Assembly (NCBI GenBank): GCA_000996355.1
Contig: LCAH01000001.1
Span: 18,482 to 82,481 of the forward strand
Length of the DNA stretch: 64,000 bases
Reading direction: 5' to 3'
Origin: Candidatus Uhrbacteria bacterium GW2011_GWC2_41_11
GTDB lineage: Bacteria > Patescibacteriota > Patescibacteriia > UBA9934 > GWF2-40-263
Below are positions 1-51,526 of this stretch, one piece after another (positions within the stretch are counted from its first letter, which is position 1; every line of letters begins with the position of its first letter). The position numbers and the translations under genes are program-made. The notes under the pieces are model-generated. The model searched no databases and had not been told where the DNA came from. It saw only the letters and a program-made list of their open reading frames with translations.

Positions 1-26
1 GTGATACACTTCTTGTCAGAAAATAC

Positions 27-686
27 TTGTCTTTATTGAATGATATGCAGATTGTTTGGCACGGACTTTCTTGTTTTGAAATTACGTTTAAGACTCTGGA
101 AGGGGAAGTGATCCTTGTTTCGGATCCGTACCGTTCAGAGACGGGATTGAAACTTCCACGTAACATGACCGCGGATATCATTATTTCAACACATAATGCG
201 GAAGATGCGAATGCGATTGATATAGTACAAGGAAATCCATTTATTATTGCTCTTCCGGGTGAATATGAGGTGCGCAACGTTTTTCTATTTGGTATTCAGG
301 CTCCATTGAAGAGTGGAGATCGATCGCATCGTTTGTTTGTGATGGAACAGGAGGGAATTCGGATAGCTCATCTCGGGGCACTGGATCGTTCTTTGACAGA
401 CAAAGAGTTGGAACAATTGAGTCATATCGATATTTTAATGATTCCTGTTGGAGGAGGGCGTGTTCTTTCTCCAGGAGATGCTTCAGAAGTGATTGGTCAA
501 ATTGAGCCGCGTGTGGTGATTCCGATGACGCATGCGGTTCATGGAATGAAGGAGACGGTTGGAACTGTTGATTCATTCTGTAAGGAATTAAGTATTTGTC
601 GTCGAGAAGAAGCGATAAAATATAAGGTGTCACGTCGAGATCTTCCAGAAGAAGACATGCTCATTATGAATCTTGAACGTGCGTAA
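27..686 (+). CDS. MBL-fold metal-dependent hydrolase (UPF0173-like); TTG start, alternative ATG at 45
   Basis: 219 aa ORF; beta-lactamase-fold hydrolase-like motifs (HxHxDH-like region 'ISTHNAEDA', C-terminal His). Confidence 0.55.
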   Translation: MSLLNDMQIVWHGLSCFEITFKTLEGEVILVSDPYRSETGLKLPRNMTADIIISTHNAEDANAIDIVQGNPFIIALPGEYEVRNVFLFGIQAPLKSGDRSHRLFVMEQEGIRIAHLGALDRSLTDKELEQLSHIDILMIPVGGGRVLSPGDASEVIGQIEPRVVIPMTHAVHGMKETVGTVDSFCKELSICRREEAIKYKVSRRDLPEEDMLIMNLERA

Positions 687-710
687 AAAATTGGTTTCAA
701 CAAAAGATGT

Positions 711-1106
711 ATGGAAAAAAGAAAACCGCGTGATGAGGTTATTCTTGTCTCACCATCATCGCGCCAGCGGGCTCAGTTTATTGTGGGGGTCAGTGTGGCT
801 GTGATTCTTGTTTTTGTCGGATGGATTTTTTCCTTGCGTGATTTTTTTACAGGAGTGAGGTGGTCCATACCCGGAACTGCTTCTTGGCATGAACTATCTC
901 AAGGAATGCGTGGAATTGTTGAAAATGTACAAAATCAAAGCGCTCCTTCTGTTTCTGGATTGCAACAAGCAGTAGCAACGGTAACTCTCCCTCTTGAAGA
1001 GACGGTCCAGAAGCGAGTCTCAGCCATGGAAGTTGTTGCATCTCTTATGAAACAAGAATTAGAACACCCTTCTTCAAATGTAAATTCTGTCCATTCATCC
1101 GATTGA
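711..1106 (+). CDS. hypothetical single-pass membrane protein
   Basis: 131 aa ORF with one hydrophobic helix (FIVGVSVAVILVFVGWIF); no recognisable domain. Confidence 0.4.
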   Translation: MEKRKPRDEVILVSPSSRQRAQFIVGVSVAVILVFVGWIFSLRDFFTGVRWSIPGTASWHELSQGMRGIVENVQNQSAPSVSGLQQAVATVTLPLEETVQKRVSAMEVVASLMKQELEHPSSNVNSVHSSD

Positions 1107-1116
1107 TTTCCTTTGA

Positions 1117-3627
1117 TTGACTGTTATGCCAAAAAATTATTCTTCAAAACAATCAGCCGCTCCAGCAGAACCATTAGAAAATAATGGAGCGGGAAAATTA
1201 GAGCTTCGGGATATTCGTGAAGAAATGTCAGATGCTTATCTTGATTATGCCATGTCTGTCATTGTGGCTCGTGCATTACCAGATGTTCGTGACGGACTGA
1301 AACCTGTTCATCGCCGTATTTTGTATTCGATGTGGCAAACAGGCTTGCGTTCTGGATCTCGTTTTAAAAAATGTGCAACGGTTGTTGGAGATGTTTTGGC
1401 AAAGTATCACCCACATGGAGATATTGCTGTCTATGACTCTCTTGCTCGTTTAGCCCAGGATTTTTCTCTTCGATATCCGTTAGTTCACGGACAAGGAAAC
1501 TTCGGTTCTCTTGATGGCGATCCGCCTGCCGCATATCGTTACACAGAATCAAAACTTCATGCGCTTGCCGAAGAGATGCTTACGGATATCGAACGTGATA
1601 CGGTCGATTTTCGTCCAAACTATGATGGAGCTCATGAGGAGCCAAAAGTTCTTCCAACCAAACTTCCGAATTTGATTGTAAACGGAACCCTTGGCATTGC
1701 CGTTGGAATGGCGACAAATATTCCTCCGCATAATTTGACGGAAGTCTGTGATGCATTGACGTTTTTGTTGGATCAACCAGAAGCGACCATTGATGATTTG
1801 ATGCAATTTGTACAAGGACCGGATTTTCCAACTGGAGGAATTATTTACAATATCAATGACATTCGACAGGTATATGCAACGGGAAGGGGAGGAATTTTAA
1901 CGCGTGCAAAAACCGAGATTGTCGAAGATGCAAAAGGAAACTTTCGTATTTTGGTTCACGAAATTCCCTACCAAGTGAACAAAGCAACTCTTTTGGAAAA
2001 AATTGCTCTATTGGTACGCGAAAAAAAGATTGAAGGTATCAAGGATTTGTGGGATGAATCAACAAGTGCTGGCGTGCGCATTGTGGTTGAATTAAAACGT
2101 GATGCTTTCCCGAAAAAAGTTTTGAATCGATTGTTTCAAGCTACACAACTTCAAGAAACATTTCACGTAAACATGCTGGCACTCATTGATGGAATTCAGC
2201 CCAGAATTTTGAACTTGAAAATGATTTTGGAAGAGTACTTGAAGCATCGAAAAGTGGTGGTTCGCCGTCGTACCCAATTTGATTTGAATCGCGCACGTGA
2301 ACGATCTCATATTTTGGAAGGATTGCGCATTGCGCTTCTTCACATCGATAAAATCATTGCCACGATTAAAAAATCCAAAGATCGTGACGAGGCTCGTACC
2401 GCTCTTATGAAAGGGTTCTCTCTTTCTGAACTTCAAGCGGTTGCCATTCTTGAAATACGCCTCCAACAGCTTGCGAATCTTGAACGGTTGAAGATTGAGC
2501 AGGAATATGAAGAAAAACAAGCTTTGATCAAAGAATTAGAATCTATTCTCAAATCTGAAACAAAGTTAAAAAGTCTTGTAAAGGATGAAATTCAGGATCT
2601 GAAGAAATCGTACGGAGATGAACGTCGGACAAAAGTTGTAAAACAGGGTGTCAAGGAATTTTCTATGGAAGATGTGATTCCAGATCTTCCAGCTATTGTA
2701 ATGATCACGCAGGGTGGATATATCAAACGTCTTTCACCAGACACATTTCGTCAGCAGGAACGTGGAGGAAAAGGAGTTCTTGGTCTTACCACAAAAGAAG
2801 AAGATGAAGTGGAACAACTTTTTTCAACCACAACACATCGTGATCTTTTGTTTTTTACTAGCCGCGGTCGTGTATTCCAGATGAAAGCATATGATATTCC
2901 GGAAACAAGCCGAACAGCAAAGGGAACAGCCCTGGTGAATTTTTTGAATTTGGCTCCGGGAGAATCTGTATCCGCAACCCTTTCTATGGCAGATGTCGAA
3001 GGATTCAAACATCTTCTTATGGTAACAAATAAAGGAACGATTAAGAAAACACCATTTACCGATTTTGAGAATATTCGTCAGAGTGGATTGATTGCGATCA
3101 AATTGAAAGAGGGAGATAATCTTGAATGGGTTCGTCCGACCACAGGAAATGATGATGTGATGTTGGTGACATCCGATGGTCAATCCATCCGTTTCCATGA
3201 AAAAGATGTTCGTCCGATGGGTCGGGTAGCATCAGGTGTGCGTGGAATCCGTTTAAAGGGAAATGATGCGGTTGTTGGTATGGATATTATTTCGCTGGAA
3301 ATGCAAAAGCGAAAAGACCCGCCACAACTCCTCGTTGTTACAGAACACGGATTTGGAAAACGCACCCCCGTTGATGAATACAAAGTTCAGGCTCGTGGAG
3401 GTTCTGGAATTAAAACCGCGAATACTCAAGGAAAAATTGGTAAAATTGTGGCTGGAAGAATGGTAAATGCAGATGACACACGTGATCTTATGGTTATTTC
3501 CATGGCCGGACAGGTTATTCGTACAGCATTATCATCCATTTCTGTTCTTGGACGTGCCACCCAAGGAGTTCGAATCATGCGATTCAAGGAATCAAACGAC
3601 AAAGTTACAAGTGTGGCGATTGTCTAG
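1117..3627 (+). CDS. gyrA: DNA gyrase subunit A
   Basis: 836 aa; canonical GyrA N-terminus '[26 protein letters not shown]' and a C-terminal beta-pinwheel repeat region. Confidence 0.95.
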
Positions 3628-45609: not shown

Positions 45610-46353
45610 TTATTTATTTTTATCATCAGACAAAACCGTTTTTTCCCCCTTGAGAGCAAGATATAAATAGGTTGTATAGATCATGAAGATTGGAAAGAGA
45701 AAAATTTCTGTAACCGAGGCGATGACATCCATCCAGATCGGAGGAGTATCAATCCATGTTTCAATTGGAGTGTGTGTTATTCCAGCTACAAGAGCAATAA
45801 GAAGATTTATGACACACGCATACGCGAAAAGGATAGCAGCTGGACCAAGAAAAATTCTCCACGCGACAGACCAAAAATGACCTCGAACACATTCTCGACT
45901 AAAAGAGAGTGCACGGATTCCTTTTTGATTGTCTAAAAGAACAGCCATTTGAGTAAAGCTGAACCAGATGGAAAAAATGAATGCAGGAATGATAAAGAGA
46001 ATGATTCCACCAAAAATGACCGTTGTTTGCAATATACTGACAAAGAGAACAGATGGAAAATATTTCCATGCTGTTTCTTGGATGGAAAGAAGAGAGATTT
46101 GTTTATTTTCAATAAGGAGTTCCTTTGTAAGAAGAATAACAATGACTGCAACCCACGAAGCGAGAAAAAATTGAAGGAGTTCAAAAAATGTTGTTGTTAT
46201 TTGAATCCAGATATTTTCTGGTTGTCCGCTAAGATTTACCAGAATAATGCCTGCATACGGCAAAAGAAGCCAAGCAGCATAGCCGGCAAACAGAATAAAA
46301 TGAGTACGGTAAAAAAGAAAACTTTTTCGCAGAAGATCGATGACGGATGGCAT
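45610..46353 (-). CDS. polytopic membrane protein (paralog 1)
   Basis: 247 aa, 6 or more TM. N-terminal 'LLRKSFLFYRTHF' and C-terminal 'SRECVRGHFW' are shared with the upstream paralog. Confidence 0.5.
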   Translation of the reverse strand: MPSVIDLLRKSFLFYRTHFILFAGYAAWLLLPYAGIILVNLSGQPENIWIQITTTFFELLQFFLASWVAVIVILLTKELLIENKQISLLSIQETAWKYFPSVLFVSILQTTVIFGGIILFIIPAFIFSIWFSFTQMAVLLDNQKGIRALSFSRECVRGHFWSVAWRIFLGPAAILFAYACVINLLIALVAGITHTPIETWIDTPPIWMDVIASVTEIFLFPIFMIYTTYLYLALKGEKTVLSDDKNK

Positions 46354-46362
46354 AGAAAGTTG

Positions 46363-47253
46363 TTATTCCTCTGCTGATTTTTTTTGTCGATTTTCCTTGA
46401 GACTCTGGTAGAGTAATCCGTCCGTAGTGAGCATGAGTGGATTGGCAAAAATGGCGCCGGTCGATACGATGATCGTTGCAAGGATTCCTGTTAATCGAAC
46501 CGCAAGATCTTGATTTAAACCAACGGCATTTGAGACAAGAAATTCTGCCGCATAGCTTAAAACACCTTCTGCCGCGACGACAATGAGGAGGAAAATAATT
46601 TTAGGAACAGCCATTCGGATAAGAATTCCCCAAAACCGTCCGTCGATGAGTTCCCGACTACGGCGGAGAGCTTTTCGACCGTGATGATCTTCAAATAATA
46701 AAGCAAATGGTGCGTACGTATAATAAATCAACCAACGAACAGTAAGAATACAAGCAACAACCACCCCGATAGTAAGCAAGACATTTCCAAGAGTAATAAG
46801 GGCATCATTTGTTACTGTTGTACCAAGAATTCCTAAACCAAATCCTGGAAGGGTAAGAATCCATGGAACAATAAGGACACATCCCAAAAGAAGATTGATG
46901 AAGACAAGAGACCAGAAAAATTTTTTCGAGATGTGAAATAATTCATTCAAGCTTATTTTCGTTTTTTCAAACTGGCTTCGTATGAGACGAACAAGACCAA
47001 TAAAAACGAAAATACCAACAATGGGAGTAATAAGACCTGTATTGATAAGCCAAAGAGCAACAGCAAACGTTTCACTTTGAGTAAGAGCACGTTCTGAAAG
47101 AAGAGTTGAGGCATTTGGATAAATAGCAAGGGAAATAATTCCAAAAATAGTTGGAATAAATAACAAACAGGAAATACTCATGACTTCCACAAAATGTTTT
47201 CGAAAGTGTTCCCAGGAATGGTCGATGAGTTGGCCAACGGAAATGAGGGGCAT
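46363..47253 (-). CDS. polytopic membrane protein (paralog 2)
   Basis: 296 aa. 'SWEHFRKHF' and 'SRELIDGRFWG' are parallel to paralog 1. Confidence 0.5.
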   Translation of the reverse strand: MPLISVGQLIDHSWEHFRKHFVEVMSISCLLFIPTIFGIISLAIYPNASTLLSERALTQSETFAVALWLINTGLITPIVGIFVFIGLVRLIRSQFEKTKISLNELFHISKKFFWSLVFINLLLGCVLIVPWILTLPGFGLGILGTTVTNDALITLGNVLLTIGVVVACILTVRWLIYYTYAPFALLFEDHHGRKALRRSRELIDGRFWGILIRMAVPKIIFLLIVVAAEGVLSYAAEFLVSNAVGLNQDLAVRLTGILATIIVSTGAIFANPLMLTTDGLLYQSLKENRQKKSAEE

Positions 47254-47311: not shown

Positions 47312-48001
47312 TTATTTAAAAAATGGTGAAACAAGGTTCCAAATTTGTTCATGGATTTCATCTCGAGAAAGCATCGCACCACTTTTTACACATTCCATGA
47401 GAGGATATTGAGGAAATCGTGAAGCTAAATGGAGATAGGCTTGTTCTGCTTGCTCAAGATGTTTTTGATTTTCTTCATGAATATCTCGCGTCATGCCATT
47501 TTTTATTCCTTCTTGTTCCGTACGTGTTCGAATGAGATCAATTGCAAAGGACGTTGGAACATGGAGGATAATATTGAGATCAGGGCGGGGAATATGAAAG
47601 AGATTAAATTCGAGATCATCAACCCAGGAAAAAAATGTTTCACGCTCATTGGTATCCGTAATTTTTCCTCCCTGATGTCCCATATTTGAACCAACATAGC
47701 GATCCGCAAGAACATGAATGCCATTTTCTAACCATGTACGTATTTGGTGGGATGCGTCATAACGATCAACAGCATAAAAAATAGATGACACATATGGTCC
47801 AACTTCGTGAGCTGTTCCATATTTGCCGGATAAATATTCTTCTGTTGGTCCTGCATTTTTTTTTCCATATTGAGGGAAAGAAATCGTTTCAAATGGAATT
47901 TTTTGCAACGCCAATCGTTTTTTCAAAAGATCAAATTGTGTTTTTTTTCCTGACCCATCTGTTCCGTCAATGACAATGAGAGAACCTTTATTTACAGACA
48001 T
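47312..48001 (-). CDS. tmk: thymidylate kinase
   Basis: 'LIVIDGTDGSGKKTQ' P-loop. Start taken at the internal ATG (48001); ORF extends to 48100. Confidence 0.75.
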   Translation of the reverse strand: MSVNKGSLIVIDGTDGSGKKTQFDLLKKRLALQKIPFETISFPQYGKKNAGPTEEYLSGKYGTAHEVGPYVSSIFYAVDRYDASHQIRTWLENGIHVLADRYVGSNMGHQGGKITDTNERETFFSWVDDLEFNLFHIPRPDLNIILHVPTSFAIDLIRTRTEQEGIKNGMTRDIHEENQKHLEQAEQAYLHLASRFPQYPLMECVKSGAMLSRDEIHEQIWNLVSPFFK

Positions 48002-48026: not shown

Positions 48027-48464
48027 TTAAATGAAACCAGTGGAACCAAATCCTCCACGGTTTGGTTGTGCGAGTATTTGTCCTTCTTCAAATTGGGCAT
48101 GAGCGACAGGGACGAGAAATCCTTGAGCTAAACGTTCTCCTTTTTCAATATGATAGGTTTGTGTACCGAAATTATGCAATGCAAGACGCAATTCATCTTC
48201 AGGTCCGCAATAATCCTGATCAACGACCCCAATACCATTGCCAAGACGAATGCCTTTTTTGGCGTTTGAAGATCGTGGGGCGAGAATAATGGCATATCCT
48301 TCTGGAACACAGATAACAAGACCTGTTCGAAGCATTTTTGTTTCTCCTGGAGTAAGATCAGTTTCTTCAAAAACAGCAAGATCAAATGCAACCGCTCCGG
48401 GTGTTTTATACACAGGGAAAGGAACCTCCGGATCAAGTCGACGGATAATACATGGAATGTTCAT
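48027..48464 (-). CDS. dut: dUTP diphosphatase
   Basis: 'GAVAFDLA', 'RSSNAKKGIRLGNGIGVVDQDY' dUTPase motifs. Confidence 0.85.
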   Translation of the reverse strand: MNIPCIIRRLDPEVPFPVYKTPGAVAFDLAVFEETDLTPGETKMLRTGLVICVPEGYAIILAPRSSNAKKGIRLGNGIGVVDQDYCGPEDELRLALHNFGTQTYHIEKGERLAQGFLVPVAHAQFEEGQILAQPNRGGFGSTGFI

Positions 48465-48572: not shown

Positions 48573-49412
48573 ATGACACCATTTGACCTCCAATATAAAC
48601 AAGCCATTCGAGATATTATGGATCATGGGTATGATGTTCCCAATCCGTGGTCTGGTCGAACACCCCGTATGTTACCAGGAGTGACATTGCGTGTTGATTT
48701 GAATGAGGGTTTTCCTTTGCTTACATTACGTAAAATTCCTTTGAAACTGTTTGTAGCCGAGCAAATTTGGTTTTTAATGGGAGAGAATAATCCAAAATGG
48801 CTTCAGTCGTTTACCAAGATTTGGGATGATTTTTTGGAAGAAGACGGGACGATTCAGGCTGCATACGGATATCGATGGCGACATCATTTTGGGCGGGATC
48901 AAATGGATGCATTGATTACGCATTTAACGGAAAACCCTCATTCTCGTCATGCAGTCATTGTGACATGGGATCCGTCTTCCGACGGGCTTGGAGTTGATTC
49001 GAAAAAGAATCTTCCGTGTCCATACACATTTACGGTAAACATCGCAGGAGGTCAGCTCCATCTTCATAACATCATTCGCAGCAATGATATGATGCTTGGT
49101 TGTCCGCACGATGTGGCTGGGTTTGCTCTTCTTCAATGTATTTTAGCTGAACGTCTCGGAGTGTGTCCTGGTATTTATACGCATTCTATTAGTAATGCGC
49201 ATATTTATGATAATCATTTTGCCGCCGCTCGCGAACTATTGGAACGAGAGAATGACCATCCGCCTGTCTCCTGTGTTGTTCCGATTGGAGCGTATGATCG
49301 TGCTAAACAAGGGGATGAAACACTTGTGAATGAATTATATCGACAATTGCAGACTCAGTATGTTCCAATGCTGCCTATTCCAGGAATGGAAATTACTGTG
49401 AATGTCTATTAG
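48573..49412 (+). CDS. thyA: thymidylate synthase (ThyA type)
   Basis: 'GFPLLTLRKIPLKLFVAEQIWFLMGENN', catalytic 'LPCPYTF', 'RSNDMMLGCPHDVAGFALL'. Confidence 0.9.
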   Translation: MTPFDLQYKQAIRDIMDHGYDVPNPWSGRTPRMLPGVTLRVDLNEGFPLLTLRKIPLKLFVAEQIWFLMGENNPKWLQSFTKIWDDFLEEDGTIQAAYGYRWRHHFGRDQMDALITHLTENPHSRHAVIVTWDPSSDGLGVDSKKNLPCPYTFTVNIAGGQLHLHNIIRSNDMMLGCPHDVAGFALLQCILAERLGVCPGIYTHSISNAHIYDNHFAAARELLERENDHPPVSCVVPIGAYDRAKQGDETLVNELYRQLQTQYVPMLPIPGMEITVNVY

Positions 49413-49431: not shown

Positions 49432-49938
49432 ATGCGTATCGTACTTATTGCTGCGATTTCTGTTGATGGAAAAATAGCAGAAAAAAAAGAACAGTCCTCG
49501 TTAGACTGGACTTCCAGGGAAGATGTTCAGTTTTTTATTCGTAAAACAAAGGAATTAGGGACTGTTGTCATGGGTCGTAAGACATTTGAAACCATCGGTC
49601 ATGCCTTGCGTGATCGTCGAACGATTGTGATGACGCACCATATTCCTGAACAAACAGTTCCTGGTGTGGAATGGACAAATGAATCTCTATCTACGCTTGT
49701 TCATCGTTTGGAAAAAGAAGGAGTAGCGTCATTGGCAGTGATTGGTGGTTCAACGGTTTATTCAGAGTTTTTGAATGCTGGACTTATTCAAGAACTGTAT
49801 CTTACAGTCGAACCTATTTTGTTTGGATCTGGGGTTCCACTCGCTTCTGAAACTGGACGCATACATTTAGAACTTCTTGAAACAGAATTACTTGGTTCTG
49901 GTTCTGTATTGTTTCATTATCAAACTTTGTCTTCTTAG
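49432..49938 (+). CDS. folA: dihydrofolate reductase
   Basis: 'MRIVLIAAISVDGKI', 'VVMGRKTFETIG', 'VIGGSTVY' DHFR motifs. Confidence 0.85.
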   Translation: MRIVLIAAISVDGKIAEKKEQSSLDWTSREDVQFFIRKTKELGTVVMGRKTFETIGHALRDRRTIVMTHHIPEQTVPGVEWTNESLSTLVHRLEKEGVASLAVIGGSTVYSEFLNAGLIQELYLTVEPILFGSGVPLASETGRIHLELLETELLGSGSVLFHYQTLSS

Positions 49939-49952
49939 AAGATTATTTTTTT

Positions 49953-50867
49953 ATGAATGATATTGCATATCCATACCTTCCTCCTGATCGAGGTTTTTCT
50001 TATATCTCTGAGGAAAATCCATTTATGCAAGAAGCAAAGCACGCGCGTCAAACGCTTGCAGGAGACTCAATTTTTCCGGTTGGAACAGTTTTAGTTCGTG
50101 ATGGAGAAATTTTAGCCAGAGCAGGGAATGGATATAATCGTGGATCAATTGTTCGTCATATTTGTCCAAGAGTGGTTTTCGAATGCCCAAGTGGACAAGG
50201 ATATGATTTGTGTCATTTTCATGATCCAGACGGACATGCAGAACAAATGGTTATCAAAAAAGCCCGAGAATCTGGGATTGATCCGATTGATGCAGATATT
50301 TATACGTACGGCCATTGGTGGGCGTGTGAATCCTGTTGGAATGTGATGATGGAGGCAGGAATAAAAAATGTCTATGTTTTGGAAGATGCTCATGAACGTT
50401 TTACTCGTGAAAAAGTGTATGCAGAAGTTATAAAATCAACTGTTCGTCATGCCTATATTTCTGGAGCTCTTTCAGGACTTCCAGATGAAATGAAATCGAC
50501 TCAAAAACGTTTGTACGAATTATTAGCTGATGTTTGTACAGAGGTCGGATGTGAGGCGTATGTTCCACACTTGCATACAGATCCAGAAGAACATCCGGAC
50601 GCTTCAGCTTCAGAAGTGTATGCAATTGATATGGACAAAGTCGCAACACGTGATGTCGTTATTGCCGAGGTATCCTATCCTTCATTTGGTGTCGGAGGAG
50701 AATTAGTACAAGCGTTTGTGAACGAAAAGAAAATTGTGCTTCTTTCGAAAAAAGGAATGCGTATTTCTCGATTTGTATTAGGAAATCCGGCTGTGGTGTA
50801 TCACATCGAATATGAAGATGAGACACAAGCGTGTCGGATGTTGAAAAATGTATTGAAACAAATTTAA
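49953..50867 (+). CDS. dCMP/cytidine deaminase domain fused to a nucleoside 2-deoxyribosyltransferase/DNPH1-like domain
   Basis: N-terminal half carries the zinc-binding motifs 'HAEQ' and 'CESC'. C-terminal half carries 'YISGAL..D..VIAEVSYPSFGVGGEL' resembling the N-deoxyribosyltransferase fold. Domain assignment by motif only. Confidence 0.55.
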   Translation: MNDIAYPYLPPDRGFSYISEENPFMQEAKHARQTLAGDSIFPVGTVLVRDGEILARAGNGYNRGSIVRHICPRVVFECPSGQGYDLCHFHDPDGHAEQMVIKKARESGIDPIDADIYTYGHWWACESCWNVMMEAGIKNVYVLEDAHERFTREKVYAEVIKSTVRHAYISGALSGLPDEMKSTQKRLYELLADVCTEVGCEAYVPHLHTDPEEHPDASASEVYAIDMDKVATRDVVIAEVSYPSFGVGGELVQAFVNEKKIVLLSKKGMRISRFVLGNPAVVYHIEYEDETQACRMLKNVLKQI

Positions 50868-51526
50868 TTTGAAAGACCAAACTGTTTTTTCAGTTCATCC
50901 ATACGACCTTGAATGAGTAACCGGCGTTCTTCTTCTTTATCAAGTTGAAATGTCGGTGATGATATTCCGCTATATTTGGCTTTGCTTAATCCATGTAGAC
51001 AAGCTTCTTCTTCTGTGATTGGGGAAGAGAGCTCCTGAAAAAGAATCTGACAAATACGTTCTCCAGGATACACACGCAGGACTTGGTTTCCTGCTTCATT
51101 TTTCATGGGGAAAATAAGATGGCCTTTATATCCCGCATCAATAATGCCTGAAAGGGAAAGATCAATACCGCGTCGGTTGGTAGAGGTACGAGGAAAAAGA
51201 ACAGCCATGAGATTTGGTGCGCGCATTTCGATGTGTTCCAAAGAAGTTGCGATAACAAATTCATTGGGGAGGATTTCAAAAAATTGTCCGGGTTTGAGAC
51301 AGACTTCATCAAATTGTTCCTGTGCACTAATCGTTTCATCAATAGAAACCGTAATGGCTCGTCTTCCTGTTTTATCAAGTGCCCAATTTCGGGGAATAAA
51401 AAAATGAAACCCAAGGCGAAGATCCACAGCATGCGGTTGCAATTGGAATTGATCAACCATGGGATCAAAATCAATCAATCCGTGTTGCATTGCTTGAAGA
51501 ATTTCTGGGCGAGTGAGAACAGCCAT
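50864..51526 (-). CDS. dcd: dCTP deaminase-like (dUTPase superfamily)
   Basis: 'PRTSTNRRGIDLSLSGIIDAGYKGHLIFPMKN' resembles the dCTP deaminase core. Confidence 0.55.
   Translation of the reverse strand: MAVLTRPEILQAMQHGLIDFDPMVDQFQLQPHAVDLRLGFHFFIPRNWALDKTGRRAITVSIDETISAQEQFDEVCLKPGQFFEILPNEFVIATSLEHIEMRAPNLMAVLFPRTSTNRRGIDLSLSGIIDAGYKGHLIFPMKNEAGNQVLRVYPGERICQILFQELSSPITEEEACLHGLSKAKYSGISSPTFQLDKEEERRLLIQGRMDELKKQFGLSN

Follow-up and report, generated by a model that had tools for sequence, protein, structure and literature searches.

The enzymes closest to the locus described here come from five systems. In human cells, the dCMP deaminase DCTD and the 5-hydroxymethyl-dUMP N-hydrolase DNPH1 are two separate enzymes that act in series: a dCMP-family deaminase produces a deaminated 5-substituted dUMP, which is then hydrolysed by a DNPH1-fold enzyme with a Tyr/Asp/Glu triad, two phosphate-binding serines, and a base-contacting His. 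The link between DCTD and DNPH1, reportedly made by Fugger et al. 2021, was worked out only recently, and DNPH1 is a drug target. In nucleoside-antibiotic pathways, the MilA/MilB and BcmA/BcmB pairs combine a CMP hydroxymethylase, an Asp-type homologue of thymidylate synthase (TS), with an hmCMP N-glycosidase of the nucleoside 2-deoxyribosyltransferase (NDT) fold. The Xp12/PaMx74-type phages carry a module of pyrophosphohydrolase, Asp177 TS (dCMP methylase), dCMP-deaminase-family enzyme (mSCD type), and DHFR, which yields dT nucleotides from 5-methyl-dC nucleotides. The remaining two are the classical dCMP deaminases, such as the S. mutans ComEB-like enzymes and T4 Cd, and the Lactobacillus-type NDTs (PF05014).

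We analyzed a 64-kb stretch of DNA (the window; 64,000 nucleotides) from Candidatus Uhrbacteria bacterium GW2011_GWC2_41_11, in which a first-pass annotation had proposed a dCMP-deaminase domain fused to an NDT/DNPH1-like domain within a pyrimidine-dNTP gene cluster. It had considered the cluster to gather most steps of dTTP synthesis and suggested that the fusion could couple deamination to base exchange or salvage, or to the hydrolysis of noncanonical dNMPs. Our analysis confirms that the fusion exists as observed. The interpretation is only partly supported: the two domains, the DNPH1-like assignment with a nucleophilic Glu, and the location among pyrimidine-dNTP genes are correct, and of the functions offered, hydrolysis of noncanonical dNMPs fits best. 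However, the neighboring genes annotated as thyA and dcd do not carry the sequence signatures of the ordinary dTTP pathway, so that the deaminase is inferred to act after methylation rather than before it.

Table 1 Features of the deaminase-glycosidase locus in the 64-kb window, with functions predicted from sequence
Position	Strand	Feature	Basis
49953..50867	+	Fusion gene, 304 aa: zinc deaminase domain plus DNPH1/MilB-like dNMP N-glycosidase domain	ORF; Pfam; family alignment; AF2 model
49953..50432	+	N-terminal CDA-fold deaminase domain (aa 1-160); catalytic H95/E97/C125/C128; second H69/C71/C87/H90 cluster; family signature GHWWxCxxCW	
50433..50864	+	C-terminal DNPH1/MilB-like domain (aa 161-304); Y168, H206, D226, S244, E250 and S272 correspond to DNPH1 Y24, H56, D80, S98, E104 and S128'	
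48573..49412	+	TS-family gene with Asp at E. coli N177 and Pro at H147: predicted dCMP methyltransferase (5-methyl-dCMP synthase)	PF00303; alignments to solved TS, E. coli ThyA and phage homologues; related loci; PMC8670742 and 10.1101/2024.12.05.627091
49432..49938	+	DHFR-like gene (DHFR_1/RibD_C), co-oriented between the TS and the fusion; fused to the deaminase fusion in some relatives	Pfam; overlapping stop and start codons in loci L001-L004 of relatives; triple fusions (protein clusters P0054 and P0089)
50864..51526	-	DCD/dUTPase-fold gene with Pro in place of the deaminase catalytic Glu (E. coli E138): predicted non-deaminating dCTP/dUTP pyrophosphatase	Pfam and NCBIfam; alignments to solved Dcd structures; related loci
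48027..48464	-	dUTPase (dut), divergently oriented to the TS operon	NF001862 at 106.7 bits, above its cut-off of 103
47312..48001	-	Thymidylate-kinase-family gene (called start gives 229 aa)	PF02223; below the NCBIfam equivalog cut-offs; gene call

The fusion is a single ORF that carries the HAEQ and CESC motifs of a zinc deaminase and the downstream YISGAL motif. Pfam places a CDA-type zinc deaminase at aa 21-143 (PF00383, 47.1 bits against a cut-off of 25) and a Nuc_deoxyrib_tr match at aa 182-268 (PF05014) that, at 27.2 bits, lies just under the gathering threshold of 28.8, although some homologues pass it. The C-terminal half also hits human and rat DNPH1 by sequence (E about 6e-4; 'VVAEVTQPSLGVGYELG' against 'VIAEVSYPSFGVGGELV'). 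A protein identical to the fusion is recorded for Candidatus Uhrbacteria bacterium GW2011_GWF2_41_16, and at least 100 clusters of about 300 aa share the architecture at 40-60% identity. An AlphaFold model built on 38 homologues is confident (pLDDT 93.1, pTM 0.86). The possibility that the ORF is two adjacent genes or has a wrong start, which had been named beforehand as a refuting outcome, is rejected by the single ORF, the conserved full-length family, and the confident two-domain model.

To evaluate the C-terminal domain, we used the residue roles defined for DNPH1 in PMC10603095. The fusion has all six equivalent residues, and by Foldseek its predicted flavodoxin-like NDT fold superposes better on the nucleotide N-glycosidases DNPH1, MilB, and BcmB (TM about 0.75-0.8) than on true NDTs (about 0.58). 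Among 100 full-length homologues, the nucleophile E250 is conserved in 99%, S244 in 97%, S272 in 89% as Ser or Thr (82% Ser plus 7% Thr), Y168 in 92%, and H206 in 84%. In contrast, the general-acid Asp (D226) is kept in only 30%, with Trp-Ala/Ser/Thr in about 45%. In the metazoan LTEHV motif, His56 contacts the base and Glu55 activates water; whereas H206 matches the former, the equivalent of Glu55 is Pro in 96%, implying that the second catalytic step, if it occurs, must differ from that of human DNPH1. The equivalent of R30 is Ser or Thr. The phosphate pocket formed by Ser98 and Ser128' is thus represented in the fusion. Moreover, Tyr rather than Phe indicates deoxyribose, and His rather than the Glu of MilB indicates a uracil-type base, which together point by inference to a deaminated deoxynucleotide.

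The same module belongs to a large prokaryotic family of mostly stand-alone proteins of about 150 aa, with 319 representative clusters at E<=1e-10 and 35-52% identity. This family keeps the whole apparatus, with Tyr at 87%, Asp at 87%, Glu at 99% (82/83 relatives), His at 98%, and the serines at 93-94%.

In the N-terminal domain, the H-x-E and C-x-x-C residues H95, E97, C125, and C128 are invariant in the 100 homologues. The best structural match of this domain is a bona fide dCMP deaminase. However, its sequence is very divergent from characterized dCMP deaminases (E 0.003-0.02). Compared with the classical dCMP deaminase/ComEB clade (criteria in PMC3239186), it has neither the HAExNA nor the T..PCxxC motif, and NCBIfam ComEB scores 21 bits against a cut-off of 219. 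The substrate, including whether it is a monophosphate or a triphosphate (mSCD-B5 needs triphosphates), cannot be read from the sequence.

The order tmk-dut (minus), TS-DHFR-fusion (plus), and DCD-like (minus) lies between gatB and rplA-rplK-nusG-secE-gyrB. It is conserved in distant relatives, usually with overlapping stop and start codons between TS, DHFR, and the fusion, and in two clusters DHFR is fused in as well to form DHFR-deaminase-DNPH1 triple fusions. The gene annotated as thyA aligns with solved TS structures, but it reads PHDVAGF where they read PFNIASY and PCP where they read PCH, corresponding to Asp at E. coli Asn177 and Pro at His147. The E. coli ThyA and Dcd sequences used for numbering were entered by hand, and the key columns were cross-checked against the alignments to solved structures. 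While C146, E58, Y94, R166, S167, D169, H207, and Y209 are retained, Asp177 is present in all 120 closest homologues, which span Uhr-, Kerfeld-, and Kuenenbacteria among others, and also in a second, only 31%-identical TS subtype that has Tyr147 (locus L002). The signature of a dUMP-specific ThyA, Asn177 with His147, is therefore absent. PMC8670742 states that position 177 dictates dUMP or dCMP specificity, that N177D converts TS to a dCMP methylase, and that positions 177 and 147 are the two top discriminators of TS homologues on cytosine-modified contigs. Likewise, the preprint 10.1101/2024.12.05.627091 shows that Asp177 homologues lying next to dCMP-deaminase-family genes in phages make 5mdCMP (5 of 7 tested) and that the in-cis deaminases convert 5-methyl-dC nucleotides into dT nucleotides, as in phage Xp12. 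The closest phage relatives of the window TS, Pseudomonas ZQG1, Xanthomonas Mallos, and Achromobacter 83-24, share Asp177, Pro147, and a 'DGLG..KNVPCP' insertion and lie in a module of pyrophosphohydrolase, TS, dCMP deaminase, and DHFR. No sequence rules that separate a methylase from a hydroxymethylase TS, or 5mC-selective from ordinary deaminases, were found in the NEB preprint. The methylase assignment therefore rests on the phage relatives and on the DHFR linkage, which by established TS chemistry implies a methylase that releases DHF rather than a hydroxymethylase; the product itself is predicted.

The gene annotated as dcd passes the TIGR02274 cut-off narrowly (95.6 against 92.8). However, it has Pro where every solved dCTP deaminase has the catalytic Glu ('LIFPMKN' against 'VLEFYN' and 'TLELSN'). 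No second TS, ThyX, or RNR was found within the 64-kb window, a search that does not exclude a canonical ThyA or ThyX elsewhere in the genome.

To test these signatures systematically, we scanned one genome per GTDB species and found 161 loci encoding the deaminase family, of which 80 were kept; these are mostly Uhrbacteria and other Patescibacteria, plus Moraniibacteriota and Adlerbacteria. Scoring all ORFs in these loci revealed a TS homologue in 67, and all 67 have Asp177 (position 147: Pro in 61, Tyr in 5). A DCD-like gene is visible in 63 loci, with Pro at the Glu column in 61, Ser in 1, and Glu in 1, and DHFR is almost always present. The DNPH1-like domain is detectable in 40 of the 80 deaminases, whereas the other 40 are shorter (about 160-275 aa, with tails of about 50 or 80 aa) and sit in the same context. 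On a crude NJ tree of the deaminase domain, the two states are interleaved, with at least 17 changes by parsimony and the fusion inferred at the root. As the tree is weak, we take this only as an indication of repeated loss. The core unit is therefore TS(D177)-DHFR-GHWW deaminase-DCD(P138), and the glycosidase domain is an accessory.

The association of the module with deaminases is not accidental. In Kerfeldbacteria, the slot after folA holds a 581-aa protein whose N-terminal part is an amidohydrolase-superfamily deaminase domain of the COG0402 group, with best NCBIfam hits to 5'-deoxyadenosine, 8-oxoguanine, and guanine deaminases and a PDB match at E 3e-51. Its C-terminal part is the same DNPH1-like module with Y, D, S, E, and S intact. 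Six clusters share this architecture, all with the nucleophilic Glu (6/6), and two of them appear, on indirect matching, to lie on contigs that also carry Asp-type TS genes. Two unrelated deaminase folds have thus been joined to this module in the same operon position. The module also occurs fused to Glu-less DCD-fold domains (clusters P0401 and P0505) and as a stand-alone gene between rplA and gatB in another lineage. A reading in which the DCD fusions represent a third deaminase fold was rejected, because their DCD parts lack the catalytic Glu.

What the sequences establish is the joining of a zinc deaminase with an intact catalytic site to a DNPH1/MilB-like domain with all six DNPH1-equivalent residues, encoded directly after an Asp177/Pro147 TS homologue and a DHFR and next to a Glu-less DCD-fold protein, Dut, and Tmk; the pathway, the substrates, and the catalytic activities are inferred, with no biochemical evidence for any protein of this operon. 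The most economical reading is a bifunctional enzyme of an order-swapped thymidylate route so far described only in phages. In this view, dCTP would be hydrolysed to dCMP, plausibly by the Glu-less DCD-like protein as an analogue of the phage pyrophosphohydrolase. The Asp177 TS homologue would methylate dCMP to 5-methyl-dCMP with release of DHF, which FolA would recycle, explaining the tight TS-DHFR linkage. The N-terminal domain would deaminate 5-methyl-dCMP to dTMP, and Tmk would take it on. In such a pathway, dUMP would have no consumer. It could arise from stray dCMP deamination or from Dut, and any 5hm-dUMP could arise from a hydrated methylene intermediate of the TS or from salvaged DNA; both would be dead-end, mutagenic precursors. 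The C-terminal domain would use Glu250 as nucleophile, through a covalent deoxyribose-5-phosphate intermediate as in DNPH1, to cleave these off-pathway deaminated dNMPs to free base plus deoxyribose 5-phosphate, so that they could not be rephosphorylated and incorporated. This preferred function, accessory rather than a core step, is supported by the fold, the active-site conservation, the Tyr and His markers, the family trend (DNPH1, MilB, and BcmB all prefer 5-hydroxymethyl pyrimidine nucleotides), and the independent fusions. However, the relaxed Asp and the repeated absence of the domain leave it possible that it is losing function, or is structural, in many lineages, and Dut plus a DCD-fold gene would also fit an ordinary dUMP route if Asp177 enzymes retain dUMP activity. 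We consider the statement as a whole tentative, at slightly less than even. That the deaminase acts on 5-methyl-dC nucleotides and that the C-terminal domain is an active dNMP glycosidase are each somewhat more likely than not, whereas dUMP or hmdUMP as the glycosidase substrate is a guess from pathway logic and family trend and remains doubtful.

Of the alternatives, the one that survives best, although unlikely, is an ordinary pathway with an add-on, which is essentially the view of the first-pass annotation. Here, the N-terminal domain would be a plain dCMP deaminase making dUMP for a TS that still uses dUMP despite Asp177, and the C-terminal domain would be a house-cleaning hydrolase for modified dNMPs from scavenged DNA. 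The gene order TS-DHFR-dCMP deaminase plus Dut, a DCD-fold gene, and Tmk is what a classical dTTP cluster looks like, and the structural match of the N-terminal domain agrees with this; moreover, NCBIfam TIGR03284 scores the TS above its cut-off, and databases name it thymidylate synthase. However, Asp177 is invariant in the 187 sequences examined and always comes with a non-His residue at 147, a pair that mutagenesis and phage data link to dCMP specificity. In addition, the DCD-like protein lacks the Glu needed to make dUTP, and a dUMP-hydrolysing or similar glycosidase fused to the dUMP producer would be counterproductive.

Somewhat less likely is a noncatalytic C-terminal domain, serving as a nucleotide-binding regulatory or oligomerization module that tunes or assembles the deaminase, as DNPH1, MilB, and NDTs are dimers or hexamers. 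The loss or truncation of the domain in half of the species with no change of context, and the general-acid Asp kept in far fewer fusions than stand-alone relatives, favor this reading. However, where the domain is present, the nucleophile, both phosphate serines, and the Tyr are under strong conservation, whereas regulatory relics usually lose these, and the window protein keeps the full triad.

A further possibility, which we regard as improbable, is that the operon is a cellular counterpart of the Xp12-type phage module. 5-Methyl-dC nucleotides would be made for incorporation into DNA, the deaminase, perhaps at the triphosphate level, would divert part of them to dT nucleotides, and the C-terminal domain and the Glu-less DCD-like protein would deplete unmodified dC/dU nucleotides. 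The gene set matches that of phages that replace C by 5mC, namely, Asp177 TS, dCMP-deaminase-family enzyme, DHFR, and a dNTP pyrophosphatase. Extra NMP-kinase-like genes lie in the cluster in some genomes, and the Tmk is atypical. However, no cellular organism is known to replace a base, the operon is chromosomal, housekeeping, and syntenic between gatB and rplA, and a canonical Tmk-family gene next to it suggests that dTMP is the product. In its most far-reaching form, which we consider very unlikely but which is not ruled out, Uhrbacteria and related Patescibacteria would have no dUMP-dependent thymidylate synthesis at all and would derive all dTMP from 5-methyl-dCMP, using the gene set of Xp12-like phages. 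Free 5-methyl-dC nucleotides would then exist in these cells, and their chromosomal DNA may carry 5-methylcytosine in place of a large part, or all, of cytosine, which would make them the first cellular organisms with a replaced base. Finally, a transferase that exchanges bases on deoxyribose or deoxyribose 5-phosphate, coupling deamination to salvage, is the least likely, as both phosphate-binding serines of DNPH1 are conserved whereas NDTs lack this pocket (PMC10603095), Foldseek ranks DNPH1, MilB, and BcmB above NDTs, and no dNMP-level transferase is known.

If the inference holds, a major bacterial radiation makes thymidylate by methylating dCMP first and deaminating afterward, which inverts the textbook order and avoids dUMP as an intermediate. 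This would change the annotation of CPR nucleotide metabolism, in which hundreds of 'thymidylate synthase', 'dCTP deaminase', and 'deaminase' entries would be misnamed. It would also give a cellular origin or reservoir for the phage 5mC-DNA module and supply new 5-methylcytosine-directed deaminases of interest for methylome sequencing. The fusion would be a natural 'Rosetta stone' linking dCMP-family deaminases to DNPH1-type sanitizers, and the repeated fusion of one glycosidase module to two unrelated deaminase folds is a clean case for studying how proofreading steps are bolted onto metabolic enzymes. The domains themselves are of known kinds. In contrast, literature searches on CPR/Patescibacteria thymidylate metabolism, dCMP methylases, and DNPH1 fusions found no description of this fusion, of its second, nonhomologous version, of Asp177 TS in CPR, or of a phage-like 5mdCMP route in the core genome of a cellular lineage, although absence from the literature searched is not proof of novelty; CPR papers treat these thyA genes as ordinary.

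Comparing the locus with the described systems, the fusion would place the two activities of DCTD and DNPH1 in one bacterial polypeptide, with about 24% identity to DNPH1, Pro in place of E55, and Ser or Thr in place of R30, and its context is dTMP synthesis rather than epigenetic-nucleotide salvage. The MilA/MilB and BcmA/BcmB enzymes act on ribonucleotides, with Phe instead of Tyr in the glycosidase and Lys/Ala in the TS where the window TS has Ser167. They hydroxymethylate, need no DHFR, have no deaminase, and make a free base for secondary metabolism. The Xp12/PaMx74-type module shares the Asp177/Pro147 TS with its insertion and the adjacent deaminase and DHFR. However, the phage deaminases are single-domain proteins of about 150 aa that are only 19-26% identical and lack the second zinc insert, no DNPH1-like domain is present, the pyrophosphatase is MazG-like rather than DCD-fold, and the purpose is 5mC DNA. 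The classical dCMP deaminases, which are the best structural matches of the N-terminal domain, share the CDA fold, the HxE and CxxC zinc site, and an insert before HxE carrying a second metal cluster, whereas the GHWWxCxxCW signature is unique to the family described here. Likewise, the Lactobacillus-type NDTs share the flavodoxin-like fold and the nucleophilic Glu after a glycine-rich turn, but the phosphate-binding serines of the fusion suggest a domain directed to nucleotides rather than nucleosides.

In the window, the gene annotated as thymidylate synthase carries Asp at the position of Escherichia coli Asn177 and Pro at that of His147, which is the signature of dCMP-methylating homologues, and the same holds in every related Patescibacteria sequence examined (120/120 and 67/67). 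Likewise, the dCTP-deaminase-family gene has Pro at the position of the catalytic Glu (E. coli E138), a change conserved in 61/63 related loci. Although this protein passes the NCBIfam dCTP_deam cut-off, it is probably a non-deaminating dCTP/dUTP pyrophosphatase.

Coordinates of the features in the window and in related loci (L numbers)
Sequence	Coordinates	Strand	Feature
Window	45610-46353 and 46363-47253	-	Two membrane proteins
Window	47312-48001	-	Tmk-family gene
Window	48573-49412	+	Gene annotated as thymidylate synthase
Window	50864-51526	-	dCTP-deaminase-family gene
L002	6379-7974		Cytidylate_kin2 protein, 531 aa
L008	9865-10416		AAA_18 kinase, 183 aa
L009 (Candidatus Kerfeldbacteria, JACPGL010000008.1)	1-1983		gyrB
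L009	7569-9314		Deaminase domain joined to DNPH1-like module, 581 aa
L014	1-1119		Protein with a Thymidylat_synt hit

The DNPH1-like module was also observed in other protein architectures. In the Kerfeldbacteria locus, it is joined to a COG0402 amidohydrolase-type deaminase domain in the operon slot after folA, and six clusters share this architecture. In two proteins from the representative library, P0401 (401 aa) and P0505 (420 aa), the module is fused N-terminally to a divergent DCD/dUTPase-fold domain that also lacks the deaminase Glu, whereas a third protein, P0472, joins the module to an HTH domain. In locus L014, a stand-alone DNPH1-like gene sits between rplA and gatB, and upstream of it lies a protein with Pfam hits to MtrA, Thymidylat_synt, and a pterin-binding DUF4346 domain, which is an unusual TS architecture.

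In related genomes, the two membrane proteins (UPF0259/DUF7847-like) are always found between gatB and the tmk/TS cluster, and the gyrB of the Kerfeldbacteria locus carries an intein (PF14890). Many TPA MAG records that carry this typical Patescibacteria operon, including loci L016 and L019-L021 and many others from the scan of one genome per GTDB species, are titled "uncultured Gammaproteobacteria bacterium," which looks like a taxonomic mislabel in the records.

The Tmk-family gene of the window scores well below the NCBIfam dTMP-kinase equivalog cut-offs (119.6 against 193 and 56.8 against 83), and its nucleotide specificity may be atypical. In addition, extra NMP-kinase-like genes lie inside the cluster in some genomes, and either of the two found in L002 and L008 could phosphorylate dCMP or 5-methyl-dCMP. 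Of these, the AAA_18 kinase is weakly similar to the N-domain of "anti-phage dCTP deaminase."
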